DNA of 64,000 nt from an uncultured Bacilli bacterium (GTDB lineage: Bacteria > Bacillota_I > Bacilli_A > RF39 > UBA660): assembly GCA_947629035.1 (NCBI GenBank), contig CANRCE010000002.1, forward strand, positions 251-64,250. Direction: 5' to 3'. A program made the translations under genes and the position numbers. The notes beneath the pieces are model-generated. The model made no database searches. It worked only from the letters and a program-made list of their open reading frames with translations, and was not told the origin of the DNA. Positions 1 to 30,973 of this stretch are shown here, piece after piece. Numbering within the stretch: the stretch's first letter is position 1; each line of letters starts with the position of its first letter.

Positions 1-976
1 ATTATTTAGTATAGTACCACCTAATGCTGTATTAGTAACACATAATATTTTTACTGGTAAAGTAAAAGTAAAAGAAAGAGGTTTAAGATTTAATTTTCCT
101 TGGATAAGAAGTAAATTGGTTATTACTTCAACTGTAGCTATCGATTATCCAAAAAGAAAGTATGTAACATCAGATAATGTTTATATTGATGTCGATCCTG
201 CTTTGACTGTTAAAGTAATTGATGCTAGTAAATATGAATTTAATAGTACTAATCCATTAGAGGAATTAGGAACTAAAATTGAAGATGTAATGCGTATTTT
301 TATTGCTAATAAATCAGTAAAAGATATGATTGGTAAAAAATATAATTTAGTTGAAATTGATTCTCAAGGATTACTTGCTGATTTTGCACTTAGAAATGGT
401 CTACAAGTTACAAATTTATATTTTAAATCAACTGATTTACCTAAAACATTAGTAGATGATTTTGAAGCTGCTACACAACAAAGATTAGCTAATGAAAGGG
501 CAATTGAAAGAGCTAAAAGCTTAAAAGAACAAGCTATAATTAATAAAGAAACAGCTAAATTAAATGCTGAAGCAGCAGCATATGGTGAGAAAACTAGATT
601 AACAGCTATAGCTAAAGTTTTAAAAGATATGAATATCACACCAACAGAATTTGCTAAAGTAGTAAGTGATTCAATGTGGTCTAATGGTAATGCTACAGTA
701 ATTGCTAATGTAGGAAATAATGCTCCAGATAAAACAGCAGTAGATCTTGCAACATTAATTGAAGCATTAAGACAATCACATAATAAACCAAAAAGAAATA
801 CTAAAACTAAAACTAGTGAACAACCAACGGTTAAAGATTTAGCTGAAAATAATAATGTCGATTCAGTAAATTCTAGTGAGAAAAATGATAGTGAAAGTCA
901 AGAAGTAGAACAACCAAAAAAACGAGGTAGAAAAAGAAAAGTTACAGAACCTACAACAGATTCTGAAAATAAATAA
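1..976 (+). CDS. SPFH/Band-7 (stomatin/prohibitin-like) domain protein, 3' part; gene starts upstream of window
   Basis: The frame of ORF 116..976 stays open back to nt 2 (LFSIVPPNAVLVTHNIFTGKVKVKERGLRFNFPWIRSK...). SPFH-like core followed by a coiled-coil segment (ATQQRLANERAIERAKSLKEQ) and a Lys/Glu/Ser-rich low-complexity tail. Confidence 0.5.
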   Translation, partial: LFSIVPPNAVLVTHNIFTGKVKVKERGLRFNFPWIRSKLVITSTVAIDYPKRKYVTSDNVYIDVDPALTVKVIDASKYEFNSTNPLEELGTKIEDVMRIFIANKSVKDMIGKKYNLVEIDSQGLLADFALRNGLQVTNLYFKSTDLPKTLVDDFEAATQQRLANERAIERAKSLKEQAIINKETAKLNAEAAAYGEKTRLTAIAKVLKDMNITPTEFAKVVSDSMWSNGNATVIANVGNNAPDKTAVDLATLIEALRQSHNKPKRNTKTKTSEQPTVKDLAENNNVDSVNSSEKNDSESQEVEQPKKRGRKRKVTEPTTDSENK

Positions 977-984
977 TAAAAGCG

Positions 985-1125
985 ATGACTTGGCTTGGAA
1001 ACCAAAACAGCTATATAGAATAAAAGAGATTCCTTTTAAAGAATAAATAAGGTGGAACCGCGGAAATTTAATTTTCGTCCTTATGTCTTAAAGGAATCTT
1101 TTTTAATATATAAAAGGAGAATGAT
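985..1125 (+). promoter_or_regulatory. T-box riboswitch leader upstream of glyQS (short glycine-type)
   Basis: Canonical T-box core aaataAGGTGGaACCGCGg at 1044-1062. Possible GGC specifier in 'acttGGCttgg'. Downstream 'ATAAGG...CCTTAT' antiterminator pairing and a U-run (1110-1117) before the RBS. The leader is only about 65 nt from the upstream stop to the T-box, so Stem I may overlap the upstream gene. Confidence 0.55.
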
Positions 1126-1128
1126 AAG

Positions 1129-2499
1129 ATGAATGAATTAACAATGGAAAAATTAGTAAATTTATGTAAGCAATATGGTTACATTTTTCAAGGTAGTGAA
1201 ATTTATGGAGGACTTGCTAATACATGGGATTATGGACCTTTAGGAAGCAAGTTAAAAAATAATATTAAAGATTTATGGCGTAAGCGATTCATTCAAGAAA
1301 GACAAAATGCTTATGAGTTAGATGCAGCAATCTTAATGCATCCAAGAGTATGGGAAGCAAGTGGTCATGTAGCAAGTTTTTCTGATCCACTAATTGATTG
1401 TAAAAATTGTAAAACAAGACATCGAGTGGATAATTTAATTGATGAATTTGATAGTAATGCTCATGCAGATGGCTTAACTCAAGAAGAAATGATGGCTTAT
1501 GTAAGAGAGCACAAAGTACCATGTCCTAAATGTGGTAAGAGTGATTTTACGGATATTAGATCATTTAATTTAATGTTTGAAACATATCGTGGTGTAACTG
1601 AAGATAGTAAAAATAAAATATATTTACGACCTGAAAATGCACAAGGAGAATATGTTAATTTTTTAAATGTGCTACGTTCTATGCGATGTAAACTTCCCTT
1701 TAGTATTGGGCAAGTAGGAAAAGCTTTTAGAAATGAAATAACACCAGGTAATTTTACTTTTAGAACTATTGAATTTGAACAAATGGAATATCAAACTTTT
1801 TGTAAAAAAGGAACTGATAGTGAACTTTATAATTATTTTAAAGAATATGCTAAAAAATTCTTTATTGATTTAGGTATAAAAGAAGAAAAATTACGTTATC
1901 ATGATCATGAAAAATTAGCTCATTATGCTAAAGAAGCATGTGATATTGAATATAAATTTTGTTTTGGTTGGGGTGAGATTAATGGAACACATAATCGAAC
2001 AGACTATGATTTAAGTCGTCATCAAGAATATTCAACCGAATCTCAAAGTTATTTAGATCCTGATACTAATGAAAAATTTATTCCATATATTATTGAATCA
2101 ACTGTAGGATGTGATCGTTTAGTTTTAGCTATTTTAGATAATGCTTATACTGTAGAGGAACTTGATAATGGCGATACAAGAGAAATTATGAAAATTCATC
2201 CTGCGCTTGCTCCTTATAAAGTAGCAATTTTACCTTTAAATAAAAAATATCATAGTAAAAAAGCATTAGAATTATATGAAAACTTATCTAAAAAGTTTTC
2301 TGTAACTTATGATGAAACTGCTTCAATTGGTAAAAGATATCGAAGAGCAGATATATCAGCTGTTCCATTTTGTATAACAGTAGATGATGAAACACTAAAT
2401 AATAATACTGTAACAATAAGAAATCGTGATACGATGAAACAAGATATTGTAAATGTATCTGATATTTCAGATTATATTGAAAAAAGAATTACTTTTTAA
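1129..2499 (+). CDS. glyQS: glycine--tRNA ligase, single-chain (alpha2, archaeal/eukaryote-like) type
   Basis: 456 aa. Class II aaRS motifs; start MNELTMEKLVNLCKQYGYIFQGSEIYGGLANTWDYGPLG is typical of alpha2 GlyRS. T-box leader upstream. Confidence 0.9.
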   Translation: MNELTMEKLVNLCKQYGYIFQGSEIYGGLANTWDYGPLGSKLKNNIKDLWRKRFIQERQNAYELDAAILMHPRVWEASGHVASFSDPLIDCKNCKTRHRVDNLIDEFDSNAHADGLTQEEMMAYVREHKVPCPKCGKSDFTDIRSFNLMFETYRGVTEDSKNKIYLRPENAQGEYVNFLNVLRSMRCKLPFSIGQVGKAFRNEITPGNFTFRTIEFEQMEYQTFCKKGTDSELYNYFKEYAKKFFIDLGIKEEKLRYHDHEKLAHYAKEACDIEYKFCFGWGEINGTHNRTDYDLSRHQEYSTESQSYLDPDTNEKFIPYIIESTVGCDRLVLAILDNAYTVEELDNGDTREIMKIHPALAPYKVAILPLNKKYHSKKALELYENLSKKFSVTYDETASIGKRYRRADISAVPFCITVDDETLNNNTVTIRNRDTMKQDIVNVSDISDYIEKRITF

Positions 2500-2501
2500 A
2501 A

Positions 2502-2552
2502 AAAAGATGCTCATATTTTAAGCAAAAGATGCTCATATTTTAAGCATCTTTT
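2502..2552. terminator. bidirectional rho-independent terminator between glyQS (+) and clpB (-), containing a perfect 22-nt tandem duplication
   Basis: aaaagatgctcatattttaagc occurs at 2502-2523 and again at 2524-2545. The second copy plus 'atctttt' forms the hairpin aaagatgct/agcatcttt followed by a T-run. The complement supplies an A-run/T-run for the convergent clpB. Confidence 0.55.
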
Positions 2553-4660
2553 AATATTAATTTATTATTGTTTAAGTCAATAACAACATTGCTATTAAAT
2601 TTAATTTTATCTTCTAAAATGGCATTTGCAATAAGCGTTTCAATGTTTCTTTGAACAAATCTTTTAATAGGCCTTGCTCCATATTTTTCATCATAAGCAT
2701 TATCAATAATAAAATCTTTAGCTTGACTAGTTAGTTTTAGATGAATATTTTTATCTTTTAGTCGATTAGTTATTTCATTAATAATCTTATCTAAAATATC
2801 ATAGATAACTTCTTTACTTAAAGAATTAAAAATAATTATCTCATCAATACGATTTATAAATTCTGGTTTAAATGTATTTCTTAATTCACTTAAGACCATT
2901 TCATTTTTATTAATATCATTATCTAATATGTAATCACTTCCTAAATTAGAAGTCATAATAATAATCGTATTTTTAAAATCAACTGTTCTACCTTGAGAAT
3001 CAGTAATTCTACCATCATCTAAAATTTGAAGTAAGATATTAAAAACATCTTTATGAGCTTTTTCAATTTCATCAAATAAAACGATGGAGTAGGGATTTCT
3101 TCTTACAGCTTCTGTTAATTGTCCTGCATCATCATAACCAACATATCCAGGAGGAGAACCAATAAGTCTTGCAACCGAATGAGCTTCCATATATTCAGAC
3201 ATATCAATTCTAATCATATGTCTTTCATCATCAAATAACTCATAGGCTAAACTTCGAGCTACTTCGGTTTTACCAACCCCTGTAGGTCCTAGGAAAATAA
3301 AGGAACCAATTGGTCGATTAGGATCTTTAATACCTGCTCTTGCTCTTATAATGGCTTCACTTACTAATTTTAAAGCTTCATCTTGACCTTTAACTCTTTT
3401 TTCAAGATTTTCTTTTAAATTTAATAATTTTTCTTTTTCACTTCCTACTAATTTTGCAATAGGAATACCTGTCCATTTAGAAATTATACTAGCAACAGAT
3501 TCTTCATCAACGGTATCAGATAAAATATCTGATTTATTTTGTTGTTGTAAAGTTTGTAATTCTTTTTCTAATTTAGGGATAGTTCCATGACGTAAAACAG
3601 CAGCTTTTTCTAAATCGTAATTATTTTCGGCTGTATCTAGATCAAAATAAGCTTTATCTATTTCTTCTTTTTTCTTACTTATTTTACTATTAATATCTTT
3701 TTCCTCTAAAAATCTAGTTCTTAAATCTTCTTCCTTAACTTTTAATTCACTGATATTTTTATCAATTTGTTCTAATCTTTTTTTAGAAATTTCATCTTTT
3801 TCCTTTTTTAAAGCCTGTTTTTCAATTTCAAGTTGCATAATATTTCTTGTTAGAGTATCTAATTCGACAGGAACAGATTCCATTTGTACTCTAATAGTAG
3901 CACAAGCTTCATCAATTAAATCAATAGCTTTATCAGGAAGATAACGATTAGTAATATATCTATCTGATAAATTAGCTGCTGCTATTAAAGCTTTATCTTT
4001 AATATTAACACCGTGATAAACTTCAAAACGAGATTTTAAACCTCTTAATATTGTAATAGTATCTAAAACACTAGGTTCTTTTACTAGGACTTTTTGAAAT
4101 CTACGTTCTAGGGCACTATCTTTTTCAATATATTTGCGATATTCATTTAAAGTAGTAGCTCCGATACAATGAATTTCTCCTCTTGCTAACATAGGTTTTA
4201 ACATATTACCAGCATCCATTGCTCCCTCAAGAGCACCAGCACCTACGATCATATGAATTTCATCAATAAACATAATGATATTACCACTTTCATCTTTAAT
4301 TTTTTTTAAAACAGCTTTTAATCTTTCTTCAAATTCTCCCCGATATTTAGCTCCAGCAATTAAAGAGCCCATATCAAGTTCCCAAATAGTTTTATTTTTT
4401 AGACTATTTGGAACATCACCTTTGATAATTCGATTAGCAAGTCCTTCGATAATAGCAGTCTTACCAACACCAGCTTCACCAATTAAGACAGGATTATTTT
4501 TGGTCTTACGTGATAAAATTCGGGTAATGGATCTAATTTCATCATCTCTACCAATGACTGGATCAACTTTACCATCGCGAACAGCTTGGGTAATATCTCT
4601 ACCATATTTTTCTAAAACATTTTCTTCTTGATTAAAATTTTGTTCATTCATATTTATCAC
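2540..4660 (-). CDS. clpB: ATP-dependent chaperone ClpB, form lacking the N-terminal domain
   Basis: 706 aa. Two AAA+ modules ([16 protein letters not shown]) separated by a long coiled-coil M-domain ([36 protein letters not shown]...), which identifies ClpB rather than ClpC/E. The protein starts directly at D1, so the roughly 150-aa N-domain is absent, as in Mollicutes-type ClpB. Confidence 0.85.
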
Positions 4661-4820: not shown

Positions 4821-6287
4821 TTGAAAAAAATAAAAACAATATTAAAAATAATTACTTTAATTATAACCACTTGTAGTATTACCAAAGTATCTGCTAGTAG
4901 TTTATCATCGGAAGCTATTGCTGGAGTTTATGGAATATTTATATCTGATGATTATTATTCATTTCCTATGGACATTTATAGAATGGATGGTAGAGTAGCT
5001 TATTGTATTCAACCAGGAACTCAAATTATAACAAGTAATTATCTTGCTACTAGTGATACTAGTTTAAGTGGATTATCTCAAGATAAAATTGATTATATTA
5101 AATTAGTAGCTTACTATGGCTATGATTATTATAACCATCAAAATTATAATTATTATATTGCTGCTCAAGAATTAATTTGGGAAAAAGTAGTTGATGGTGG
5201 AGAGGGTTATTATACAACAACTCAAGAGGTTCATGGAGAAAAAATTGATATTGAAAAATATAAAGAAGAAATTTTAAATTTAATTGCCAAACATAATGAA
5301 ATTCCCTCTTTTGCCGATACAAAAGTTGTAAAACTTAAAAATAAAGATGTAACTATTGAAGATAAAAATAATGTCTTATCTTCATTTGAACTTACTGAAA
5401 GTGGTGCATCAATTAACAAAAATAAACTTACAATAACTAGTGATACAATAAATAAAATTTCTTTAGAAAAAAAGTTATATACTGATAAAGTTTTTTTGTT
5501 ATATTACTATTCTACATCACAAAAAATGATATCAGCAGGAATTATTGATGCTCCTAAAGTAGATGTTTATGTTGAACATACTGGAGCTAATCTTGAAGTT
5601 AAAAAGTTTGGGGAAGAGTTTGATATAACATTAAATGATTATCATAAAATACCTCTAGATGGTGTTACTTTTAATTTATATGCTAAAAGTGATATTGTTA
5701 CTAGTGATAATGTTATTCATTATAAAAGTGGTGATTTAATTGATACTTTTACAACTAATAAAGAGGGAAAAATTAATACTATTTTGTATTTTGGAGAGTA
5801 TTGTCTTGTTGAAAAATATGATAATTTTAATTATAAAATAGAGGATAATCCCTATTGTTTTACTTTAAGTCATGATGATAGTATTTCAATATATAACTAT
5901 CTTAAAAAGGGAAGTTTAAAGGTCATAAAAAAAGATGATAAAACTGGTAAAACATTACAAGGCACTACTATTGGTTTATATACTATGGATTCTAAATTAA
6001 TAGCAAGTAAAACGACAGATAATACAGGTTCAATTATATTTTCTGATATACCACTTGGTAGTTATTATATTAAAGAACTAGAAGCTAGTGAGGGTTATTT
6101 TTTAAATAATGATAAGATTTATGTTGAAGTTTTAGAGGATGATAAATTGGTAACAATTGATATTACTAATGAAAAAATAGTAAAAGTTCCGAAAACTGCT
6201 GATAATGAATATGATATTTCTAAATATATGTTTTTAGTTAATATAATTGGATTGTTTATGTTAAGATATGGTTTTAAGAAAATCTAA
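4821..6287 (+). CDS. cell-wall-anchored surface protein with Cna-B/SpaA-type (prealbumin-like) domains and a C-terminal sorting signal
   Basis: Signal peptide MKKIKTILKIITLIITTCSITKVSASS. Cna-B-like domain GSLKVIKKDDKTGKTLQGTTIGLYTMD...GSIIFSDIPLGSYYIKELEASEGY. C-terminus VPKTAD + hydrophobic YMFLVNIIGLFML + basic tail RYGFKKI, which is a sortase sorting-signal architecture. Host-like NNT codon usage. Confidence 0.7.
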   Translation: MKKIKTILKIITLIITTCSITKVSASSLSSEAIAGVYGIFISDDYYSFPMDIYRMDGRVAYCIQPGTQIITSNYLATSDTSLSGLSQDKIDYIKLVAYYGYDYYNHQNYNYYIAAQELIWEKVVDGGEGYYTTTQEVHGEKIDIEKYKEEILNLIAKHNEIPSFADTKVVKLKNKDVTIEDKNNVLSSFELTESGASINKNKLTITSDTINKISLEKKLYTDKVFLLYYYSTSQKMISAGIIDAPKVDVYVEHTGANLEVKKFGEEFDITLNDYHKIPLDGVTFNLYAKSDIVTSDNVIHYKSGDLIDTFTTNKEGKINTILYFGEYCLVEKYDNFNYKIEDNPYCFTLSHDDSISIYNYLKKGSLKVIKKDDKTGKTLQGTTIGLYTMDSKLIASKTTDNTGSIIFSDIPLGSYYIKELEASEGYFLNNDKIYVEVLEDDKLVTIDITNEKIVKVPKTADNEYDISKYMFLVNIIGLFMLRYGFKKI

Positions 6288-6792
6288 AATAATATTTATA
6301 GGTTTAATTTTTATAATCATATCATTAGGATATTATCGTAATTATTTTATTAATTATTTTGATAATATAAAAGATAAAATAAATGTCGATAATTATCTTT
6401 TAGGAAAAAATAATAAATTATTAGCAGTTATCTATATTCCTAAAATTAATTTAAAAAAAGGAATATATTTTTTAGAAACTAAAGAAAATAATGTAAATAA
6501 AAATATTGAACTCTTAAGAGGATCTACTTCTAGTGATATTCTTTTAGCAGCTCATTCAGGAAATGGAAAAAAAGGTTATTTTAATAATATATTTAATTTA
6601 AAATATAATGATTTTATCTATTTATATCATGAAAATAAAAAATATATTTACGAAGTAATAGATTTTTATAAAGTAGAAAAAGATGGATATTTAAAATTAG
6701 ATTATGTTAATTATAAAAGATTAGTTTTAACAACATGTGATATTCTAGAGGAAAATAAGCAATATGTTGTTATAGCAAAATTGATAACATAA
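6268..6792 (+). CDS. sortase family transpeptidase (short, N-terminal membrane anchor)
   Basis: 174 aa. N-terminal TM, His in LLAAHSG, catalytic Cys in LVLTTCD (TLxTC motif). Overlaps the preceding substrate gene by 20 nt. The usual Arg about 10 residues after the Cys is not obvious (QYVVIAK). Confidence 0.65.
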   Translation: MVLRKSKIIFIGLIFIIISLGYYRNYFINYFDNIKDKINVDNYLLGKNNKLLAVIYIPKINLKKGIYFLETKENNVNKNIELLRGSTSSDILLAAHSGNGKKGYFNNIFNLKYNDFIYLYHENKKYIYEVIDFYKVEKDGYLKLDYVNYKRLVLTTCDILEENKQYVVIAKLIT

Positions 6793-6900
6793 TTTAATAA
6801 AAACTACTTGAAATGGAGATAAAAATATGATATATTAAAGGTGATAAATAGGTAAGGAGAAGTAGAAAAAATGGATAGAAATACAAACATTTGTCTAATA

Positions 6901-6908
6901 GGGGGGGG
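6901..6908. repeat. G8 homopolymeric tract in the intergenic region 126 nt upstream of the giant surface-protein gene
   Basis: ttgtctaataGGGGGGGGtataaaaagcc. A run of eight G in an otherwise roughly 28% GC context. It lies between a TTGTCT hexamer (6891-6896) and a TATAAA hexamer (6909-6914). Confidence 0.9.
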
Positions 6909-7033: not shown

Positions 7034-10000
7034 ATGTTAAAAAATATAAGAAGAACATATATCCTAGCAGTAGCAGTAATAGGACTATTAGCAGTAGCAC
7101 TATATTCAACATATGCAATGTTTACAGCAAATGTTGATTTAGCAGATGTAAGTATAACCCCAAATGTAACATTAGATGCTAAATTACTAGAATATGAACA
7201 ATTAACCATACCAAAAAATGAATATAAAATAATAGAGTTAAATGTAGCAAATGATTATAATAGTGAATTACATTATGGAGCATGGTATGAAATGATAAAT
7301 CCAACAACTACAGATAATGTAATAATAGCCAAATATAGTGAAAGTCAAGATGAAACATCAGGAACAATAGGACAAAATATTACGAAGAAAATAAAAGTAA
7401 TCATCTATAATAAAAATAATGAAGATATAACTCTAAATATAGGAATAGGAAGTAATATCGATGAAAACTTAAATTTAGGAGATAATAGACATATAATACA
7501 AGATACTTATACCGTAGTAAAAGCAAATATAACACCAGATAATACAGGAACATTAAATACAAAAGAGCAAGTAATACTTCAAAATAGTGATGCAATATTT
7601 AATGTAACACCAAATGGAAATTATGAAATAAGTAATGTATCATGTACAGGAGACCAAACAGCAAGCTATGTAGGTAATACTGTAACTGTAGCAAATGTAG
7701 CAAAAACTACAACTTGTACGATAACGATGAAAGAGAAAACATATACTGTAAATGCAAGTTTAAATCCATCAGAAGCAGGTCAATTAGATAAAAATACCCA
7801 AACAGTAACAACTGGTCAAACAGCAACCTTTAAAGTAACACCAACTGATGGTTATGAAATAAATAATGTAACATGTACTGACAATAATAATGCAACTTTT
7901 AATGGAGCAACCGTAACAGTTTCTAATGTCACAAGTGATACCACTTGTATTATTAATATGAAATTAAAAACCTATACCGTCTATATAAGTGCAGATAATT
8001 CAACTATAAAAGATGGAACAAAAGTAAATAATATAGTAAAAAATGGTAGTTTTGAAGACGGAAATGCTAATTGGACATTAGAAAATGCAAGTGTAGTAAC
8101 AGCACAACATTCTCATGGTAGTAAATCATTACAATTAAATGGTGGAACGACACCAGTAACGCCTATGAGTAAGCAAACATTATCACCAAAATCACCAGTC
8201 TTAAATCATAAATATTATGGAAGATTAATGTTTTTATCATCAGCTGATTTCTCAACTAGTGATAATAGATATGAATGGTATAGTGGAGATGGACCTAATA
8301 AAAATTTAGTATTTGCTAATAAATCAGATAAAACAACAAGTTGGAAACTATTATCAAATATTCAATGGGTAACGGAAAATACATATTTATCAAACGACTG
8401 GTATATAAGAAATTTCCAAGTAAATGCAAATAGTAATTCATATGTCGATGAGTTAATGATAATAGATTTAACAGATAGTTTTGGAAGTGGAAATGAACCA
8501 AAAAAAGAATGGCTAGATAACATAATACCATATTTTGAAACATCAGGATCAGTATCTAGTAGTAATGTAGTACATGGAAATACAACAAAATTTACAATAA
8601 CACCAGATACAGGATATGAAATAGATAAATATAGTTGTACAAATGCAACTATAACTGCAAGTGAAAATGAATATACAATATCAGGAATTAATCAAAATAC
8701 AAAATGTAATGTAACAACCAAGAAAAAAACCTATAACATAACAACAACAATAACACCATCAAATGGTACAACAGTATCACCATCATCAACAACAGTTAAA
8801 CATGGTGAGACATCAGAAATATTTAAAATAACTCCTAAAACAGGATATCAAGTAAGTTTTGTTAATTGTACAAATGGAGAGGCTAAATTATCAGGAACTA
8901 ACTTTACTGTCGAAAATGTAACGGGTAATTCAGAATGTACTATAACTATGGAACTAAAAAGTTATAAGGTAAGTGCAAGTGTAAGTTCAAATGGAAGTGT
9001 AACTCCATCATCAAAAACCGTAACACATGGATCTAATGCCACTTTTACTGTAAATCCAAATGATGACTATGAAATAGATAAAGTAACATGCTCAAATAAT
9101 CAAAATGCAAGTTTTTCTGGAAATACTGTAACCGTAAAATCAGTTACTAATGAAACATCATGCACTATTACAATGAAGAAAAAAACTTATACTGTAACAG
9201 CTCAAATAAGACCACAAGATGCAGCAACAGTATCTGGAGGTAATACTAAAACAGTAAGTCATGGTTTAAGTACAAGTTTTAGTATAAGTCCTAATACAGA
9301 CTATCAATACTTATCAGTAAGTGGAACAGGCTGTAGTATTTCAGGAACGACACTTAATGTATCAAGTGTAACAGAAGAAGTAACCTGTGTAGTATCATAT
9401 TTTAAATCACTTACTCAAGATATAACAAATTTAAACTATACAGGGGATGTTCAAATATATAAAGTAACAGAAGCCGGATATTATAGATTAGAAGTATGGG
9501 GAGCTGAAGGAGGATATCGATCAAGTAGTATCTATTCAGGAAAAGGAGGATACTCTTACGGAACAGTATATTTAGAAAAAGATACGATGTTATATATTTA
9601 CGCTGGAGGTTCAGGAAATAGTGGAACATGTAGTAATAGTATTTGTACAGGAGGATTTAATGGAGGAGGATATCGACACACCTATAAAGGTGGAGGAGGA
9701 GCATCCGATGTCAGAATAGGCTCTGATGATTATTACTCAAGAGTAATTGTCGCTGGAGGTGGAGGTTCAGATGGAGCATCTACTAAAAAGGGACAATATG
9801 GTGGTGGAGAAACTGGAGGAAGTAGTAGTGAAGACTATAGTTCAGTGCGAGGTTCTGGTGGAAAAGGAGGAACACAAACTTACTCTGGATATTCAACATC
9901 TTATACAATTGAAACCCAAACAACTACAGGGCTTAATAGTAGTAAATTAGAAAATTATGCCGGAGGATTTGGTTTTGGAGGTGGAGGTGTTAGTTATAGA

Positions 10001-11419
10001 AATGGCTATGGAGGCGCTGGTGGAGGTGGCTGGTATGGTGGAAGTGGAAACGTACCAGATAGCTCTAGTGATAACGATAGAGGAGGAGGTGGAGGTTCAG
10101 GCTTTGTCTACACCAGTACAACCCCATCAACAACACTACCATCAGGCTATAAATTAACAGATAAATATCAACTTACTAGTGCAGCTACCATCGGAGGATA
10201 TAAAAGTTTTAATTCTCCATCGGGTTCACAAGAAACAGGACATACAGGAAATGGATATGTAAGAATAACCAAAGATAAATTAACAGTAAATGTATCAGTA
10301 TCACCTAGTGATAGTGCAAACATAACTGGAGATAGTAGTAAAATTACACATCATGGAGAAAATATAGAATTTATTATAACCCCCAAAGAAGGTTATAAAT
10401 ATTTTATGGCAGAAGGATGTACTTATGATGAAAATACAAATACTGCTACAGTATCAAATGTAACACAAGATACTACCTGTATAGTGAGATTCAGAGGAAA
10501 AACTAATATAGATACAATATTTGATAAATGTCAGACTGGAGGATGGAAAGATAATACAGAACCTGGTTTATACGAAGATGGAAATGGAAATTGTAGATAT
10601 GTTGGAGCTGGTCCTAATAATTGGATAAAATTTAATGATGATATGTATCAGATAATTGGAATTTTTAATGAAAATACACACGGTAAAAAAGGAGAGTACT
10701 TACTAAAATTAATTTATCCAGATATACTTATAGCAGCAGCATATGGTGCACATAATATAGATGAAACGAGTGGAACTTACTCAAACTATAGTAGTGATTG
10801 GACAGGATCAAAGCACAGTAGTCCTTCAAGCGCATACCTACTTTTAAATGAATATTTTTATAATGCGGCAGATTCATCAACAAAATATGGGGCATGTGAA
10901 AATTGGACATATTTTAATAATGGGAATGCTGATAAATCAAAAAATTGCGATACAATGGTAGTCTATGGAATAAAAGAAAAATATAGAAATTATATAGAAA
11001 ACACAGCAATATGGTATTTGTATGGACTTTCTTCTACTTATTTCACAAAAAAAGATGTATATCAATGCGAAAGAGGAGGATACAATTGTACAGCACCATA
11101 TGAAGCAACTACCCAAGCACCAATAGGTCTTATATATCTAACAGATTATCTATATGCAAGTGGTTATAGCTCAAATACTGCCAGTTTAACAAATTCTGCA
11201 TTTTACTATGAAAATTGGCTATACCAAGGAAGCGTGTGGGTATTATCACCATATAATGTCAATAGTGCAAGTATAACAAGCTTCGATAATAGCTATTTAT
11301 TTTCATCAAATTATCCATATTTTGGAAATGGTCTTCTCCCCACTTTCTATCTAAAATCTGATGTTAAAGTAACTGGAGGAGATGGAACTTTTAATAATCC
11401 ATATACTATCAGTTATTGA
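7034..11419 (+). CDS. giant (1461 aa) secreted multidomain protein: SipW-cognate-type signal peptide, about 7 InlB-B-like Ig repeats, CBM4_9-like module, glycine-rich (PF12810-like) domain, family-specific C-terminal domain
   Basis: N-terminus RRTYILAVAVIGLLAVALYSTYAMFTANVDL resembles TasA/camelysin-type signal peptides. Repeats of about 75 aa share 'TP.DGYEI..V.C....A.F.G.TVTV.NVT.DTTC.I.M..KTYTV'. Residues about 335-520 carry NGSFEDGNANWTLENASVVTAQHSHGSKSLQLNGG (CBM4_9 pattern). Residues about 805-1075 are Gly-rich (YRLEVWGAEGG...GKGGYSYGTVYLEKDTMLYIYAGGSG...VRIGSDDYYSRVIVAGGGG). The last roughly 300 aa are shared with three paralogs. RBS aGGTGAtagcctATG. Codons end in A (gca, gta, aca, ata, gga), unlike host genes. 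Confidence 0.8.
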   Translation: MLKNIRRTYILAVAVIGLLAVALYSTYAMFTANVDLADVSITPNVTLDAKLLEYEQLTIPKNEYKIIELNVANDYNSELHYGAWYEMINPTTTDNVIIAKYSESQDETSGTIGQNITKKIKVIIYNKNNEDITLNIGIGSNIDENLNLGDNRHIIQDTYTVVKANITPDNTGTLNTKEQVILQNSDAIFNVTPNGNYEISNVSCTGDQTASYVGNTVTVANVAKTTTCTITMKEKTYTVNASLNPSEAGQLDKNTQTVTTGQTATFKVTPTDGYEINNVTCTDNNNATFNGATVTVSNVTSDTTCIINMKLKTYTVYISADNSTIKDGTKVNNIVKNGSFEDGNANWTLENASVVTAQHSHGSKSLQLNGGTTPVTPMSKQTLSPKSPVLNHKYYGRLMFLSSADFSTSDNRYEWYSGDGPNKNLVFANKSDKTTSWKLLSNIQWVTENTYLSNDWYIRNFQVNANSNSYVDELMIIDLTDSFGSGNEPKKEWLDNIIPYFETSGSVSSSNVVHGNTTKFTITPDTGYEIDKYSCTNATITASENEYTISGINQNTKCNVTTKKKTYNITTTITPSNGTTVSPSSTTVKHGETSEIFKITPKTGYQVSFVNCTNGEAKLSGTNFTVENVTGNSECTITMELKSYKVSASVSSNGSVTPSSKTVTHGSNATFTVNPNDDYEIDKVTCSNNQNASFSGNTVTVKSVTNETSCTITMKKKTYTVTAQIRPQDAATVSGGNTKTVSHGLSTSFSISPNTDYQYLSVSGTGCSISGTTLNVSSVTEEVTCVVSYFKSLTQDITNLNYTGDVQIYKVTEAGYYRLEVWGAEGGYRSSSIYSGKGGYSYGTVYLEKDTMLYIYAGGSGNSGTCSNSICTGGFNGGGYRHTYKGGGGASDVRIGSDDYYSRVIVAGGGGSDGASTKKGQYGGGETGGSSSEDYSSVRGSGGKGGTQTYSGYSTSYTIETQTTTGLNSSKLENYAGGFGFGGGGVSYRNGYGGAGGGGWYGGSGNVPDSSSDNDRGGGGGSGFVYTSTTPSTTLPSGYKLTDKYQLTSAATIGGYKSFNSPSGSQETGHTGNGYVRITKDKLTVNVSVSPSDSANITGDSSKITHHGENIEFIITPKEGYKYFMAEGCTYDENTNTATVSNVTQDTTCIVRFRGKTNIDTIFDKCQTGGWKDNTEPGLYEDGNGNCRYVGAGPNNWIKFNDDMYQIIGIFNENTHGKKGEYLLKLIYPDILIAAAYGAHNIDETSGTYSNYSSDWTGSKHSSPSSAYLLLNEYFYNAADSSTKYGACENWTYFNNGNADKSKNCDTMVVYGIKEKYRNYIENTAIWYLYGLSSTYFTKKDVYQCERGGYNCTAPYEATTQAPIGLIYLTDYLYASGYSSNTASLTNSAFYYENWLYQGSVWVLSPYNVNSASITSFDNSYLFSSNYPYFGNGLLPTFYLKSDVKVTGGDGTFNNPYTISY
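9444..10270 (+). other. glycine-rich domain-coding segment inside the giant ORF (PF12810-like); source of spurious alternative-frame ORFs
   Basis: GGN/GGA codon runs. Translated motifs LEVWGAEGG, LYIYAGGSG, ASDVRIG, RVIVAGGGGS, GGAGGGGWYGGSG match the bacterial glycine-rich-protein family pattern. ORF-track entries 9747..9950 and 9957..10157 are off-frame artefacts of this region. Confidence 0.6.
10619..10649 (+). repeat. 31-nt block (aattggataaaatttaatgatgatatgtatc) identical in three paralogs (also 11770..11800 and 25797..25827)
   Basis: Identical at nucleotide level inside the conserved C-terminal domain of the giant ORF, the 338-aa paralog and the 486-aa paralog. Encodes NWIKFNDDMY. Confidence 0.85.
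11338..11376 (+). repeat. 39-nt block near the 3' end of the giant ORF, 37/39 identical to 12468..12506 in the next paralog
   Basis: cccactttctatctaaaatctgatgttaaagtaactgg versus cccactttctatctaaaacctgacgttaaagtaactgg. Encodes PTFYLK(S/P)DVKVTGG. Confidence 0.8.
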
Positions 11420-11532: not shown

Positions 11533-12549
11533 ATGAATAAGAAATCGGTGATAGGTTCTAGTATGATATTAACAACAATAATAGGAATAGTATCAATATA
11601 TATTGGGAATACATATGCAGTAGAAAATGTTAGCGAAAGTGGCTCCTATAACACTTTAGTGGATACAATAATAGGTTTAGCTCCTGAAGAAGTTGGATGG
11701 GAGGCAGGAGCAGAAGGACTATACCAAGATGAAAATGGAGATTATCGATATATTGGAGGTAGTCCAGATAATTGGATAAAATTTAATGATGATATGTATC
11801 GAATAATTGGAATATTTCAAGAAAACACTCATGGTTTAGAAGGCTATCGAGTAAAATTGATTAGAGTAAAACCAATTGGAGCATATGCATATGGAGTTTA
11901 TCTCAAAAATAATTCTACTCGATATCATGGTGTCGACTTGGTTGGAATAAATGATGGTGATCAAAGCACTCCATTAAATTCGTATATATTACTAAATGAA
12001 TATTTTTATAATGCAACAGATGTATCAGAAGATTATGGAAAATGTGAAGATTGGGCATACGTTACAACTAGTAAGACAAAAAATTGTGATACAATAATAG
12101 GATATGGAATAAAAAATGAATACAGAAGTTACATAGAAAACACAGCGACATGGCACTATAATTGGTGTTATACTGATTTAAGTAAACAAGCTTTATATCA
12201 ATGTGAAAGACTTAGTGTTAATATAGATTATAGTACTCAAATGCCAGTTGGAGTAATGTATGCTTCTGATTACGCATACGCAAGTGGATATTTAGCAAGT
12301 TCAGATGCTGTTAATCAAGCGCTACGGGCAGGATCTAATTGGCTTTATATTGGATATGAATGGACAATAACACCAAATTGCTGGTTCCAAACTCTTTTTG
12401 TTAACCCTGGTGGAATGATAAGTTCATGTGATTTTAATTTAGGTTCAGAACATTCTATGCCAATACGTCCCACTTTCTATCTAAAACCTGACGTTAAAGT
12501 AACTGGTGGTACAGGGGCATATGATGATCCATATACTATTAGTATGTAA
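11533..12549 (+). CDS. secreted paralog (338 aa): signal peptide + family C-terminal domain only
   Basis: Signal MNKKSVIGSSMILTTIIGIVSIYIGNTYA|VE. Remainder aligns with the C-terminal 300 aa of the giant ORF (GLYQDENGDYRYIGGSPDNWIKFNDDMYRIIGIF, NTHG, YGKCEDWAY, NCD, QCER, YASGY, NWL, EWTITP, RPTFYLKPDVKVTGG). A-ending codon bias like the giant ORF. Confidence 0.8.
   Translation: MNKKSVIGSSMILTTIIGIVSIYIGNTYAVENVSESGSYNTLVDTIIGLAPEEVGWEAGAEGLYQDENGDYRYIGGSPDNWIKFNDDMYRIIGIFQENTHGLEGYRVKLIRVKPIGAYAYGVYLKNNSTRYHGVDLVGINDGDQSTPLNSYILLNEYFYNATDVSEDYGKCEDWAYVTTSKTKNCDTIIGYGIKNEYRSYIENTATWHYNWCYTDLSKQALYQCERLSVNIDYSTQMPVGVMYASDYAYASGYLASSDAVNQALRAGSNWLYIGYEWTITPNCWFQTLFVNPGGMISSCDFNLGSEHSMPIRPTFYLKPDVKVTGGTGAYDDPYTISM
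11761..11801 (+). repeat. 41-nt block identical to 25788..25828 in the 486-aa paralog
   Basis: agtccagataattggataaaatttaatgatgatatgtatcg is present in both genes. Confidence 0.8.
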
Positions 12550-25154: not shown

Positions 25155-26615
25155 ATGATTGATAAAATAAAAGTAATTTTAGCAATTTGTATAAGTACTT
25201 TCTTATTAGGAATTGGAATGACTTATGCTTGGTATACTTGGCAATCAGATAGTAACACTAACATTTCTTTTAAAATAATGAGTATGGCTGATGTAAGTTT
25301 TGCTACAGGAAATGATATTAATGTCGATGATTTAGCTCCTGTTTTAGACTATAAAGATGGAAAAATGACATCATTTTCTATAAATAATAAAAAAGAACAA
25401 ACCTTTACTGGTATGGTTAATTTAGAAATAACAACGATAGATGAAAATTTAAGAGTTGAAGATTTTAAATATGTTTTATTAAGCTCCAATGATAATAATA
25501 GTTTTACAGAAATAGCCAATGGTAATTTTAAAGATCAAGGACCTCAAACTATTACAATTAAAGAAATAGAAGTAAATCCAGGTATTACGTATTATCAATT
25601 TATAATTTATATCGATGGTAATATGGAAAATAATATTAATATGATGAATAAGCAATTTGTAGCTAAACTTATGGTTGAAGTTAAGGGAGTAAGTGATATA
25701 TTAGATTCTTGTGCTGATGAAGAGTGGGTATCTGGCGCTGAAGGCTTATATAAAGATGGAAATGGAAATTGTCGATATATCGGTGCAAGTCCAGATAATT
25801 GGATAAAATTTAATGATGATATGTATCGTATAATTGGTATTTTTGATGGTAATACTCATAAAAAAGAGCAAGAGAATTTATTAAAACTAATATATCCAAG
25901 TGCTTTTATTTCTAGTTCTTATGGAATATATAATACTACTAATGATAGTGGTACTTATTCTAATTATAGTAATAGTTTTAAGAATGATACTCAAGCTAGT
26001 CCATCAAATGCTTATGTTTTATTAAATGAATATTTTTATAATAAAACTAATACGTCAGGCACATATGGTGATTGTAATAATTGGACATATTTTCGAAATA
26101 GTGATGGAAAACAAGTAGGAAGCTGTGATAAAATGTTAGCCTATGGTATAAAAAGTGAATATCAAGATTATATTGAAAGTAATGTAACTTGGTATTTATA
26201 TGGAAATGCAGATAATACTATTAAAAGACAAGAGATGTATTTGTGTGAGAGAGGATTAAATGGTTGTACTAGTGCAAATGGTGGAGCGTCTAGTGAAAGT
26301 ATTATAGCTCCAATTGGATTAATGTACCCATCAGATTATTCATATGCTAGTGGTAAGTATTCAATAAGTGAAGATCCAAGATTATCTGAAAAAGATTTAG
26401 GTATTGAAAATTGGCTATTTACAGGTTATGAGTGGATTATAACACCATCAAGTAGTGATGCTAAAAAAGTTTTTCAAATAACGGATCAAGGTTTAGTTGA
26501 TATAGAGAGTGCATATCACTCACTTGTCTTACGTCCTGTATTTTATTTAAAATCAGATGTAAAAATAATAAATGGAAGTGGATCTTATAATGATCCTTAT
26601 GAAGTAAGTTTATAA
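25155..26615 (+). CDS. secreted paralog (486 aa): SipW-cognate-type signal peptide + roughly 150-aa N-terminal domain + family C-terminal domain
   Basis: N-terminus KVILAICISTFLLGIGMTYAWYTWQSDSN resembles TasA/camelysin signal peptides. The C-terminal 300 aa align with the other three paralogs (GLYKDGNGNCRYIGASPDNWIKFNDDMYRIIGIF, NTH, YGDCNNWTYF, SCD, LCERG, YASG, ENWL, EWIITP, RPVFYLKSDVKI). Host-like T-ending codons. Confidence 0.75.
   Translation: MIDKIKVILAICISTFLLGIGMTYAWYTWQSDSNTNISFKIMSMADVSFATGNDINVDDLAPVLDYKDGKMTSFSINNKKEQTFTGMVNLEITTIDENLRVEDFKYVLLSSNDNNSFTEIANGNFKDQGPQTITIKEIEVNPGITYYQFIIYIDGNMENNINMMNKQFVAKLMVEVKGVSDILDSCADEEWVSGAEGLYKDGNGNCRYIGASPDNWIKFNDDMYRIIGIFDGNTHKKEQENLLKLIYPSAFISSSYGIYNTTNDSGTYSNYSNSFKNDTQASPSNAYVLLNEYFYNKTNTSGTYGDCNNWTYFRNSDGKQVGSCDKMLAYGIKSEYQDYIESNVTWYLYGNADNTIKRQEMYLCERGLNGCTSANGGASSESIIAPIGLMYPSDYSYASGKYSISEDPRLSEKDLGIENWLFTGYEWIITPSSSDAKKVFQITDQGLVDIESAYHSLVLRPVFYLKSDVKIINGSGSYNDPYEVSL
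25788..25828 (+). repeat. 41-nt block identical to 11761..11801
   Basis: agtccagataattggataaaatttaatgatgatatgtatcg. Confidence 0.8.
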
Positions 26616-26639: not shown

Positions 26640-27692
26640 TTGCAAAAGAAATTGATAATAAATTTTAGTTTAATATTAATAGTAATTACTATGGCATCAG
26701 TATATATAGGAAATACTTATGCTCATGCTGATGAATCATCCCAAGCAGCAACTACTTTATTAACAGAGGAGATTAAGAATAAAAGCCAAGGCCAAGGTTG
26801 GTCTTCGGGTAATGAAGGATTATATCAGGATGAAAATGGTGACTATCGATATGTCGGAGCAAATCCTAATAATTGGGTAATATTTAATGATGATAGATAT
26901 CAAATAATTGGTATGTTTAATAAAAATACCCATGGATTGGATGGCTATCGAGTAAAATTAATAAGAGCAAAACCAATCGGGGCTTATGCTTGGGGAGTAT
27001 ATAATGATAGCAATACTAGTGGTACTTATTCTAATTATAGTGCTAATTGGACTGGAAAAGGTCAAAGTACGCCAGCTAATTTATATGTTTTATTAAATGA
27101 ATATTTTTATAATAAAAAAGATACTTCAGATACATATGGTAATTGTAATGATTGGACATATTTTTCATCCAATTTAAGAAAAACCCAAAATTGTGATGTT
27201 ATAGTAGACTATGGTATAAAAAGTGAATATCAAAATTATATTGAAAGTGAGGCAACCTGGTATTTATATGGCATTTTAAGTACTAATTTAGAAGTACAAA
27301 GGCGAGATATGTACGAGTGTGAAAGAGGATCGGGAGATTGTACTAGTGCAAATAGTGGAGCATCTGATACAAGTATCACTGCGCCAATTGGACTTATGTA
27401 TCCTACTGATTATCTATATGCAACTAATAATTATGCTGATAGTAATAATGCTCATAAATTAGTCGAAAACAATTATGGTATTTCCAATTGGTTATATATG
27501 GGTTATGAGTGGACTATAACTCCAACTACTGATGAGCAAATTGCTCTTCGAGTTGAGTATAATAGTAGTATTAATAAAAATTATACTTGTTTTGCTAATC
27601 TTGTTCGTCCAACTTTTTATTTAAAGTCTGATGTTTATGTAAAAAGTGGTGATGGGTCATATAATAATCCTTATGTCTTGACACTTTCGTAA
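26640..27692 (+). CDS. secreted paralog (350 aa): signal peptide + family C-terminal domain
   Basis: TTG start with RBS aaaGAGGTG. Signal ...ITMASVYIGNTYA|HADE. Domain GLYQDENGDYRYVGANPNNWVIFNDDRYQIIGMF, NTHG, YGNCNDWTYF, NCD, ECERG, YAT, NWL, EWTITP, RPTFYLKSDVYV. Confidence 0.75.
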   Translation: MQKKLIINFSLILIVITMASVYIGNTYAHADESSQAATTLLTEEIKNKSQGQGWSSGNEGLYQDENGDYRYVGANPNNWVIFNDDRYQIIGMFNKNTHGLDGYRVKLIRAKPIGAYAWGVYNDSNTSGTYSNYSANWTGKGQSTPANLYVLLNEYFYNKKDTSDTYGNCNDWTYFSSNLRKTQNCDVIVDYGIKSEYQNYIESEATWYLYGILSTNLEVQRRDMYECERGSGDCTSANSGASDTSITAPIGLMYPTDYLYATNNYADSNNAHKLVENNYGISNWLYMGYEWTITPTTDEQIALRVEYNSSINKNYTCFANLVRPTFYLKSDVYVKSGDGSYNNPYVLTLS

Positions 27693-30034: not shown

Positions 30035-30973
30035 ATGCGAAGAAAAATTGAAGATTTAGATTTAGGAAAGGCTAGTATTTTAGTATTAAAAGAATATAAG
30101 TATTATTTAGAAAATGTTTTAAGTAAACAAGATAATAGTGTTATGTCATATATTACGGATATTATCTTATATTTAAAATTTCAAGAAAAAGAAAAGGGTA
30201 AGTTTGATGATATCGCTAAACTTACTACTAAAATAAGTATTGATGATATTGAAAAATATATACAATATTTAGTGTCTTCATCATATTCAGATACTTCGAT
30301 AAGAAGAAAAATGATATCAATTAAATTATTTCACAAATATTTAAGTCATAAATATAGTGTTTATGATTGTGCAGAAAAATTACAAAGTAGAAAAATACAA
30401 AAAAAATTACCAGAGGCTTTAACTATCGAAGAAGTAGAAAAATTACTTGATATTAAATTAGAAAATGCTTATGATTATCGTAATAAAGCTATGTTAGAGC
30501 TTATGTATGCAACGGGATTAAGAGTTAGTGAATTAGTAGGTCTAACTTTATATGATATTGATTTAAAAGAGGGTTATTTGCGATGTAAAGGTAAGGGTAA
30601 TAAAGTTAGAATTGTTCCTATTGGAGAAGTTGCTTTAGATTATTTAAATATTTATTTAGATAATTATCGTAGTAGTTTAAAAAAAGCTTATGTTTGTGAT
30701 AATATTTTTTTAAATAATCATGGTAAAGCTATTAGTAGGCAAGGCTTTTTTAAAATAATAAAAAAACAAGCAATGGATGTTGGTATTACAAAGGAAATAA
30801 GTCCTCATATGTTAAGACATTCTTTTGCAACACATCTTCTTAATAATGGAGCAGATTTAAGAAGTATTCAAATGATGTTAGGTCATGCTAATTTATCGAC
30901 TACGCAAATTTATACAAATTTAACTAATGATGTTTTAAGAGAAAATTATGATTTATATCATCCAAGAAGCTAG
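30035..30973 (+). CDS. xerD: tyrosine site-specific recombinase, XerD/XerC family
   Basis: 312 aa. Catalytic region HMLRHSFATHLLNNGADLRSIQMMLGHANLSTTQIYT (R..H..R..Y). The LSTTQIYT ending looks closer to Bacillus XerD (RipX) than XerC, so the D-versus-C assignment is tentative. Confidence 0.75.
   Translation: MRRKIEDLDLGKASILVLKEYKYYLENVLSKQDNSVMSYITDIILYLKFQEKEKGKFDDIAKLTTKISIDDIEKYIQYLVSSSYSDTSIRRKMISIKLFHKYLSHKYSVYDCAEKLQSRKIQKKLPEALTIEEVEKLLDIKLENAYDYRNKAMLELMYATGLRVSELVGLTLYDIDLKEGYLRCKGKGNKVRIVPIGEVALDYLNIYLDNYRSSLKKAYVCDNIFLNNHGKAISRQGFFKIIKKQAMDVGITKEISPHMLRHSFATHLLNNGADLRSIQMMLGHANLSTTQIYTNLTNDVLRENYDLYHPRS

Follow-up and report, generated by a model that had tools for sequence, protein, structure and literature searches.

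Architecture of the locus and N-terminal region of the 1461-aa protein

The window analysed here, which comprises the whole 64-kb stretch of contig CANRCE010000002.1 from an uncultured Bacilli bacterium, contains an open reading frame (ORF; 7034..11419, +) that starts with ATG and encodes a protein of 1461 amino acids. An annotation made from the sequence of the window alone (the original prediction) had placed the ORF at exactly these coordinates, and the order and number of the domains which it proposed were likewise recovered. From the N- to the C-terminus, the protein incorporates a predicted signal peptide, a family-specific N-domain, seven InlB-B-type repeats, of which the third appears to host a jelly-roll resembling a carbohydrate-binding module (CBM), a glycine-rich domain (GRD) located between the sixth and seventh repeats, and a C-terminal family domain (CTD). 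The most useful new fact concerns the latter domain, which lacks annotation and belongs to a family with a predicted lectin fold that is targeted by diversity-generating retroelements (DGRs) in related genomes, but appears non-diversified here. What is otherwise new is the combination of the modules, the kinds of which are already known. The protein is a singleton in a collection of 15 billion proteins at 90 % clustering, and also forms its own representative at 50 %. Unless indicated otherwise, all coordinates given below are for features on the forward (+) strand of the window.

The predicted signal peptide (residues 1-29; 7034..7120), as read from the translation, comprises a basic n-region (KNIRR), a hydrophobic core of 17 residues and a TYA cleavage-type motif, and would be cleaved from the mature protein. 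Similar ends (NTYA or MTYA) are found at the N-termini of the paralogs encoded elsewhere in the window. The N-domain which follows (residues 30-158; 7121..7507), as seen by alignment and by tblastn comparison to the related loci L007 and L012, is common to the proteins of both of these loci and to that of the nearest relative, P0001. It is also shared, weakly, with the 486-aa paralog, whose own N-domain (25155-25670) aligns to it with 22 % amino acid identity and, like it, has no match in any library. The end of the signal peptide of this paralog (MTYA/WYT) resembles that of the 1461-aa protein. A TasA/SipW-type signal peptide and N-domain, suspected on the basis of the string STYA/MFT, was rejected, with no match observed in NCBIfam, Pfam, PHROGs or the PDB sequences. 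Residues 1-158, comprising the signal peptide and N-domain, do not feature in the architecture as originally described.

Using a hidden Markov model (HMM) built from the protein's own repeats, seven repeats of ~75 aa could be distinguished (i-E 4e-13 to 2e-36), and the cut-off of the Pfam divergent InlB B-repeat family (PF18998) is exceeded (30.6 bits vs 23.6). The expectation of about seven InlB-B-type repeats with two cysteines apiece is thus confirmed, with a cysteine pair, spaced 18-24 residues apart, present in every repeat. Repeats 1 and 2 (residues 159-235 and 236-312; 7508..7969; i-E 9e-35 and 2e-36, with PF18998) are followed by what would be the initial strand(s) of the third repeat (residues 313-~328; 7970..8017). 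The remainder of repeat 3 (506-565) and repeats 4 to 6 (566-642, 643-717 and 718-792) are encoded at 8549..9409 (i-E 4e-13 to 5e-34), while repeat 7 (1084-1156; 10283..10501; i-E 1e-30) lies beyond the GRD. When left unspliced, residues 506-565 of repeat 3 match HMM positions 17-77 with 35.6 bits, with the first ~16 positions missing, while splicing of residues 313-326 to this segment extends the match to positions 3-77 with 44.2 bits. As splicing restores a near full-length repeat match, a loop of repeat 3 is the probable site of insertion of the CBM-like module. The repeats themselves are likely to act as a stalk.

The CBM-like jelly-roll module

The module nested in repeat 3 (residues ~329-505; 8018..8548) was modelled as a beta-jelly-roll with AlphaFold, using 22 sequences (pLDDT 92.1, pTM 0.89). 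Foldseek comparison of the model against the PDB placed a CBM16 structure first (E 2e-8; target-normalised TM 0.76), with further matches to CBM22, a porphyran-binding CBM and CBM4-2. For the CBM16, CBM22 and CBM4 structures, E ranges from 2e-8 to 1e-5, with a probability of 1.00. The same jelly-roll also matches a phage tailspike, Cry/Vip toxin domains and cyclases. The segment had been predicted to be a CBM4_9 module, and of this assignment the fold stands, with a CBM4/16/22-type fold supported by the model (pLDDT and Foldseek values as above), while membership of the Pfam CBM_4_9 family (PF02018) is not supported. Matches to PF02018 are found in 3/62 members of the module family scanned, one of which, P0153, shows a sub-threshold match (residues 8-119, E 3.6e-4) inside its own copy of the module (residues 3-181). 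The putative CBM assignment is drawn from the modelled fold and from these weak, transitive sequence links.

The module carries an N-terminal NGSFE..W motif and terminates in a conserved helical tail (IDLTxxFGxGNEPxKEW). Three relatives were identified in a word-indexed search with the single sequence and nineteen when a profile was used in the word-indexed search, while an exhaustive HMMER search (E<=1e-3) identified 3188 representatives. The latter number indicates that the CBM-like modules constitute a large family outside Pfam coverage. Among the 62 module proteins scanned, a GRD is also present in eight, including the 1461-aa protein. In the two proteins that were checked, the GRD lies C-terminal to the module, at a distance of 8-25 residues. 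Furthermore, Sipho_Gp37 and Prophage_tail domains occur in five and four of the 62 proteins, respectively, and some module proteins have type IV pilin-like N-termini. Tandem copies of the module recur within the family (the module of the 1461-aa protein together with proteins P0142-P0284).

The glycine-rich domain

Residues 813-1079 (9470..10270) match the Pfam family PF12810 over nearly its entire length (E 6.3e-39; 134.8 bits vs a threshold of 24.5; profile positions 6-241 of 243). The domain contains 25 % glycine and eleven glycine runs, shares 68 % identity with its counterpart in the L007 protein, and matches the phage protein families phrog_1589, 7388 and 5811 (E 4e-28 to 2e-23). A PF12810-like domain had been predicted at this position, and is confirmed, but its description as a beta-solenoid-like domain of a family with no assigned function requires correction. 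Pfam PF12810 is now named the ALK/LTK glycine-rich domain, and the GRD of ALK/LTK has been reported to consist of polyglycine-II helices located next to a TNF-like domain. The bundle in ALK is reported, in PMC11364801 with citation of Li et al. (2021), to comprise fourteen polyproline II (PPII) helices. Domains of the GRD type have been reported to form part of ALK's ligand-binding extracellular domain (PMC9608196, PMC11364801). [quoted passage not shown] No paper on bacterial PF12810 proteins was found in our literature search.

Among the domain assignments initially made for the protein, those to the InlB B-repeats (PF18998) and to PF12810 are thus supported by domain searches, while that to CBM_4_9 is not. 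Small off-frame ORFs, which had been attributed to the Gly-rich region, do occur within this stretch (9747..9950, +, 67 aa; 9957..10157, +, 66 aa; 9411..9629, -, 72 aa), but comparable ones are also found elsewhere in the gene, for example at 8316..8543 (-).

The C-terminal family domain

The CTD occupies residues ~1160-1461 (10511..11416). The distal end had been predicted to be a module shared within a family, and residues ~1136-1461 are indeed common to three other ORFs in the window, with 44-49 % amino acid identity. These include a paralog of 338 aa immediately downstream (11533..12549), which consists of a signal peptide and CTD only (BLASTP, 44 % identity to residues 1136-1460), as well as a tandem pair comprising the 486-aa paralog with an N-domain (25155..26615; 46 % identity) and one of 350 aa (26640..27692; 49 % identity). 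None of the three has a Pfam match. A gene coding for a XerC/XerD-type tyrosine recombinase (Phage_integrase and SAM-like N-domain; 30035-30973) is located ~2.3 kb downstream of the tandem pair. Overall, 411 homologs of the CTD were identified, none of which is named or contains a Pfam domain, and most of which are either ~345 aa (signal peptide and domain) or ~500 aa in length.

The AlphaFold model of the CTD (pLDDT 86.7, pTM 0.87) has one strong match in the PDB, namely the IgAse of Thomasclavelia ramosa (9qa6; E 1.9e-8, 314 columns, TM 0.48, 15 % identity). From the domain map in the paper describing this structure, the matched region is probably the N-terminal domain (NTD) of the IgAse. 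This domain of ~290 residues has been described as a C-type-lectin-like core which, with its decorations, reaches double the usual size and which resembles Lcl; it is dispensable for IgA cleavage and its function was left unresolved (PMC12237041). The weak Foldseek matches which follow comprise the C-terminal domain of Legionella Lcl (8q4e), in second position, and many canonical C-type lectin domains. The title of a reference cited in PMC12237041 concerns the recognition of host glycosaminoglycans by the Lcl C-terminal domain. Among the viral models in BFVD, the CTD matches DUF6273 proteins of gut phages (E 5e-6 and weaker), as well as proteins annotated as tail-collar fibre or receptor-binding and DUF1566 proteins. 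At the sequence level, weak matches to DUF6273 (PF19789) are found in 5/69 family members (best E 2.6e-4), with none in the window CTD at E<=10, and the CTD has no match to the Mtd, FGE-sulfatase or DUF1566 Pfam models. A sequence-level link between the CTD and solved structures was likewise rejected, with a 69-sequence profile giving spurious short matches to cruzipain only (E 0.014). On the basis of the model, the CTD probably adopts an enlarged C-type-lectin-like fold.

Targeting of the CTD family by DGRs in related genomes

A genome scan identified the CTD family in 76 loci, mostly in metagenome-assembled genomes (MAGs) of 'uncultured Bacilli' from the human gut, with others in Clostridium sp. 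CAG:609, Firmicutes bacterium CAG:460, Candidatus Onthocola and 'Tenericutes' MAGs, and several genomes encode multiple copies. A reverse transcriptase (RT) is encoded within 3 kb of the CTD gene in 10/76 loci. Eight pairs of a template repeat (TR) and a variable region (VR) could be distinguished in seven loci, with between 9/11 and 14/14 of the mismatches falling at template adenines (binomial p 1e-3 to 6e-7). For example, mismatches coincide with adenines in 13/13 cases in L001, 14/14 in L010, 10/10 in L016 and 15/18 in L012. The TRs are rich in AAC and AAT (Asn) codons. The cassette in L010 (120-3951) incorporates, in order, a target gene with VR1, a bAvd-like gene (PF22296, E 9e-8), the RT gene (PF00078, RVT_1; 39.7 bits vs a threshold of 29.6), the TR, and a second target with VR2. 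The CTD family is thus a DGR target in related gut Bacilli MAGs. Complete cassettes are present in loci L010, L001, L005, L012, L014, L016 and L017 of gut Bacilli MAGs, those of L010 and L005 including a second target, and the TR flanks are conserved in these loci (GGGTARTCT upstream and TATTTGGG downstream).

The VR comprises ~30 residues (~80-90 nt) between the conserved strings W-T-x-T-P and R-P-T-F-Y-L-K-S, and corresponds to exactly those columns of the family alignment which lack conservation (A1 positions 272-299). Annotated DGR variable regions are C-terminal and located in C-type-lectin folds (PMC8144416, PMC5758913), and the position of the VR in the CTD family fits this published rule. 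In 31/38 CTD copies the VR forms a GC-rich island (0.43-0.65 vs 0.23-0.39 in the gene body), both with and without a visible RT in the vicinity. As it is the VR which is rewritten by the DGR in these relatives, the lectin-fold tip is likely to represent the specificity-determining face of the protein.

Targeting extends to a protein which also contains a GRD. The L012 locus (585-3041) encodes a protein of 818 aa with an N-domain, GRD, small domain and CTD, and its gene is followed by an RT ORF and an 84-nt repeat of its 3' end. The location of this RT and TR just downstream indicates that the GRD-bearing protein is itself a DGR target. The same domains are arranged in the same order in the 836-aa protein of L007 (1321-3831), and the VRs of both proteins are GC-rich, as in DGR targets, while the P0001 protein (560 aa) shares the signal peptide and N-domain and contains a single repeat and the CTD. 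To judge from these sequences, a core architecture comprising the N-domain, an optional GRD and the lectin tip appears to be conserved in the related genomes, while the seven repeats and the nested CBM-like module appear to be additions specific to the lineage of the 1461-aa protein.

The copies in the window appear to be static

In the 1461-aa protein, the segment equivalent to the VR comprises residues 1407-1435 (11252..11338), between S-P and L-P-T-F-Y-L-K-S. Its GC content (0.31) equals that of the gene body, and the four window copies (0.30-0.36), or these together with L036, L046 and L073 (0.28-0.36), are at background level. Position 1435, within the RP motif at the closing end of the VR, is occupied by Leu (11336-11338) instead of the Arg found in at least 90 % of the family, which is consistent with decay of the GC-rich end of the VR. 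The four VR-equivalent segments in the window lack the common backbone which would be expected if they had been copied off one template. Furthermore, no repeat of any of the four segments, no TR-like sequence and none of the conserved TR-flank motifs of the relatives were found in the 64-kb window. No RT was identified in the window by tblastn, and a scan for YxDD gave two matches in unrelated ORFs. The only GC-rich islands in the window are the Gly-rich coding stretch and a tRNA-Gln gene. With no RT, no template repeat and no GC-rich VR island, the four copies thus look static. The VR-equivalent segment of the 1461-aa protein is, however, matched in length to the VR of L001 and both end in YFGNG, suggesting descent from a diversified ancestor.

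Alternatively, the protein may still be an active target of a remote DGR located outside the window, in which case its tip would be hypervariable within the population. In favour of this are the resemblance to the L001 VR, the targeting of the family in relatives, the ability of DGRs without phage association to reach targets over 100 kb away (PMC5758913), and the GC content of 0.65 in the VR of the closest GRD relative, L007. None of the four copies in the window, however, resembles the DGR-type copies in terms of VR composition, as their segments fall below the 0.43-0.65 range and lack a GC-rich 3' end; nor do they share a backbone, the near-invariant Arg codon at the VR end has been replaced by one for Leu in the 1461-aa protein, and the RT, TR and TR-flank motif are all missing from the window. 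Ongoing diversification by a remote DGR is therefore considered very unlikely.

Genomic context of the locus

The window has a G+C content of ~25 %, with most genes encoded on the + strand. Housekeeping genes surround the locus, including those for leucyl- and aspartyl-tRNA synthetases (LeuRS and AspRS), a class II tRNA synthetase, ClpB-like ATPases, MreC, RadC and an AddAB-like helicase/nuclease, which indicates that the DNA is chromosomal and derives from a low-GC bacterium. Directly upstream of the gene for the 1461-aa protein is a pair of genes (4821-6792) coding for an adhesin with thioester (TED) and SpaA pilin-like domains and a VPKTAD-type sorting signal (4821..6287; Pfam TED and SpaA, C-terminal sequence), and, overlapping it, a small sortase (6268..6792; Pfam Sortase). 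The 1461-aa protein itself ends in GGDGTFNNPYTISY, and lacks a sorting signal of the LPXTG type with the hydrophobic segment and basic tail which would come after it. No sortase or TED neighbour is present at the P0001 locus, although this synteny comparison is uninformative.

A G8 homopolymer (6901..6908) is found 126 nt upstream of the ATG of the 1461-aa gene. It is the sole run of at least six G or C residues in the window, where 0.016 would be expected by composition. Speculatively, it may be a candidate slipped-strand phase-variation tract for the surface protein gene. No match to the flanks of the tract was found in the metagenome scan. A promoter-like site is located upstream of the tract (6808-6836), while the promoter/terminator scan as a whole gave counts not above those of shuffled sequence.

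The domain content of the protein could also be accommodated by a phage or prophage receptor-binding protein, such as a tail fibre, rather than a bacterial surface protein. Relatives of the CBM-like module co-occur with Sipho_Gp37 and Prophage_tail, the GRD matches PHROG families, and the CTD model resembles phage DUF6273 proteins and proteins annotated as tail-collar fibre or receptor-binding. Against this, the protein carries a predicted N-terminal signal peptide, and the genes which flank the locus code for the sortase, TED adhesin, an acyltransferase, a glycoside hydrolase of family 31 (GH31), LeuRS, a ClpB-like ATPase and a glycyl-type tRNA synthetase, with no phage structural genes among the annotated ORFs of the window. 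The paralogs are, moreover, spread along the chromosome and mostly consist of a signal peptide and CTD. A role as a phage or prophage receptor-binding protein is thus highly improbable.

A narrower version of a ligand-binding function, which does not contradict it, is that of a carbohydrate-specific adhesin or glycan-capture protein, in which the CBM-like module and lectin tip bind sugars. The GH31 gene, which such a protein may feed, is located 2.3 kb downstream, but is separated from the 1461-aa gene by the acyltransferase gene, which is in the opposite orientation. The jelly-roll matches CBM16, CBM22 and CBM4 structures, but also proteins that are not lectins, among them Cry toxin domains and cyclases, and the Pfam CBM model fails. 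Similarly, C-type-lectin-like folds often bind glycans and the Lcl C-terminal domain is the second PDB match of the CTD, yet the lectin folds of the DGR type are general ligand-binding scaffolds which are not necessarily specific for sugars (PMC5758913). We regard specificity for carbohydrates in this strict sense as rather doubtful. The carbohydrate-targeting role originally proposed is plausible, while 'surface or secreted ligand-binding protein' represents a safer wording.

Proposed function of the 1461-aa protein

The explanation that we favour, with moderate confidence, is that the 1461-aa protein is a secreted or surface-displayed, non-enzymatic, multi-module ligand-binding protein, and a fixed-sequence descendant of a DGR-targeted family. 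Its host would be a small-genome, low-GC gut bacterium of the class Bacilli, from which the protein would be exported by means of its signal peptide. Beyond the family-specific N-domain, the seven disulfide-capable InlB-B-type repeats would form a stalk bearing three modules of kinds which bacteria and phages use for recognition, namely the CBM4/9/16/22-like jelly-roll in the loop of repeat 3, the ALK/LTK-type GRD and the enlarged C-type-lectin-fold tip. All three globular modules may bind ligands, with the lectin tip as the presumed main determinant of specificity. While a DGR rewrites the ~30 residues before RPTFYLKS in the tip of the relatives, the copy in the window and its three paralogs would be of fixed sequence, and the 1461-aa protein may instead have gained repeats and the CBM-like module.

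Several results weigh against this explanation. The protein lacks an LPXTG-type signal, a lipobox and a C-terminal anchor by which it might stay on the cell. The N-domain (30-158) has no match in Pfam, NCBIfam, PHROGs or the PDB sequences, and Pfam PF02018 (CBM_4_9) is unmatched both by the whole protein (E<=1) and by the isolated CBM-like segment (E<=10). For the GRD, no ALK/LTK chain was recovered from the PDB sequences at E<=10 using phmmer or a five-sequence GRD profile, which may in part be due to low-complexity bias filters. Assignment of the lectin fold to the CTD is made from one strong Foldseek match (TM 0.48) and many weak ones, and known DGR variable proteins are absent from the top 50 PDB matches of its model. 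Lastly, 64 kb of a 67-kb contig are represented in the window, and a DGR may be present elsewhere in the genome.

A more far-reaching scenario can be put forward tentatively, although we consider it unlikely to hold in full. The gut Bacilli of this clade may use the protein comprising N-domain, GRD and lectin tip as a programmable surface receptor, the tip of which is rewritten by a chromosomal DGR. The protein in the window would have lost hypermutation and compensated for this with fixed modules, in the form of the nested CBM-like domain and the longer stalk, with the G8 tract possibly serving as an on/off switch, and the NTD of IgAse would be derived from the same lectin superfamily.

Comparison with known systems

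The repeats of the 1461-aa protein resemble the InlB B-repeats and Listeria-Bacteroides repeats (PF18998, PF09479), which likewise form spacers of ~75 aa between functional modules. They differ from those of InlB-type proteins in containing a conserved cysteine pair and in that one apparently hosts a nested domain, while the leucine-rich repeat (LRR) and GW modules of InlB-type proteins are lacking. The nested module would be a beta-jelly-roll of the same size as those of CBM families 16, 22 and 4, according to its model. Unlike CBM_4_9, it has a family-specific helical tail, and its family is associated with phage tail proteins, GRDs and pilin-like N-termini instead of glycoside hydrolases. 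The GRD resembles the ALK/LTK domain in its full-length match to PF12810, far above threshold, and contains eleven glycine runs; unlike in ALK/LTK and Pam3 gp24, it is bacterial, forms part of a single chain between InlB-B repeats, and is associated with neither a kinase nor a fibre context. The labels attached to these modules are corrected to a CBM by fold only, a GRD of the ALK/LTK type and, for the family domain, a DGR-target family of predicted lectin fold that is absent from Pfam.

Among the closest parallels for the CTD family are the DGR variable proteins, including Mtd of the Bordetella phage, TvpA of Treponema and LdtA of Legionella (CLec classes; PMC5758913), whose C-terminal lectin-like fold is also predicted for the CTD. 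As in these proteins, the CTD of the relatives contains a VR which is paired with a TR rich in Asn codons, adjoins genes for an RT and an Avd-like protein and, in some cases, forms part of a two-target cassette. The copies in the window differ in lacking the TR, RT and GC-rich VR, and the CTD of ~300 aa is about twice the size of a normal C-type-lectin-like domain; in the 1461-aa protein it is fused to the GRD, CBM-like module and InlB-B repeats. Neither the bacterial PF12810 members nor the ~300-aa CTD family have a described function, and the 1461-aa protein ties both to the logic of DGRs. Targeting by DGRs in sister genomes marks the tip as the ligand-binding, specificity-determining end. 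The family thereby provides a concrete way into the interactions of uncultured gut Bacilli with small genomes (the group of Clostridium sp. CAG:609 and Firmicutes bacterium CAG:460) with their surroundings, and the hypermutated and fixed copies constitute a natural comparison pair for one receptor.

Among solved structures, T. ramosa IgAse (9qa6; PMC12237041), probably through its NTD, is alone in matching the CTD strongly, and a resemblance to Lcl is common to the NTD and the CTD. Unlike this NTD, with which it is 15 % identical and shares no sequence-level match even when the 69-sequence profile is used, the CTD is located at the C-terminus of the 1461-aa protein with no enzyme attached, while the IgAse domain precedes a metallopeptidase. 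The match nevertheless suggests a testable identity for the IgAse NTD, which may belong to the same ligand-binding lectin superfamily, and if this is the case, a role for that domain in host-ligand targeting can be expected.

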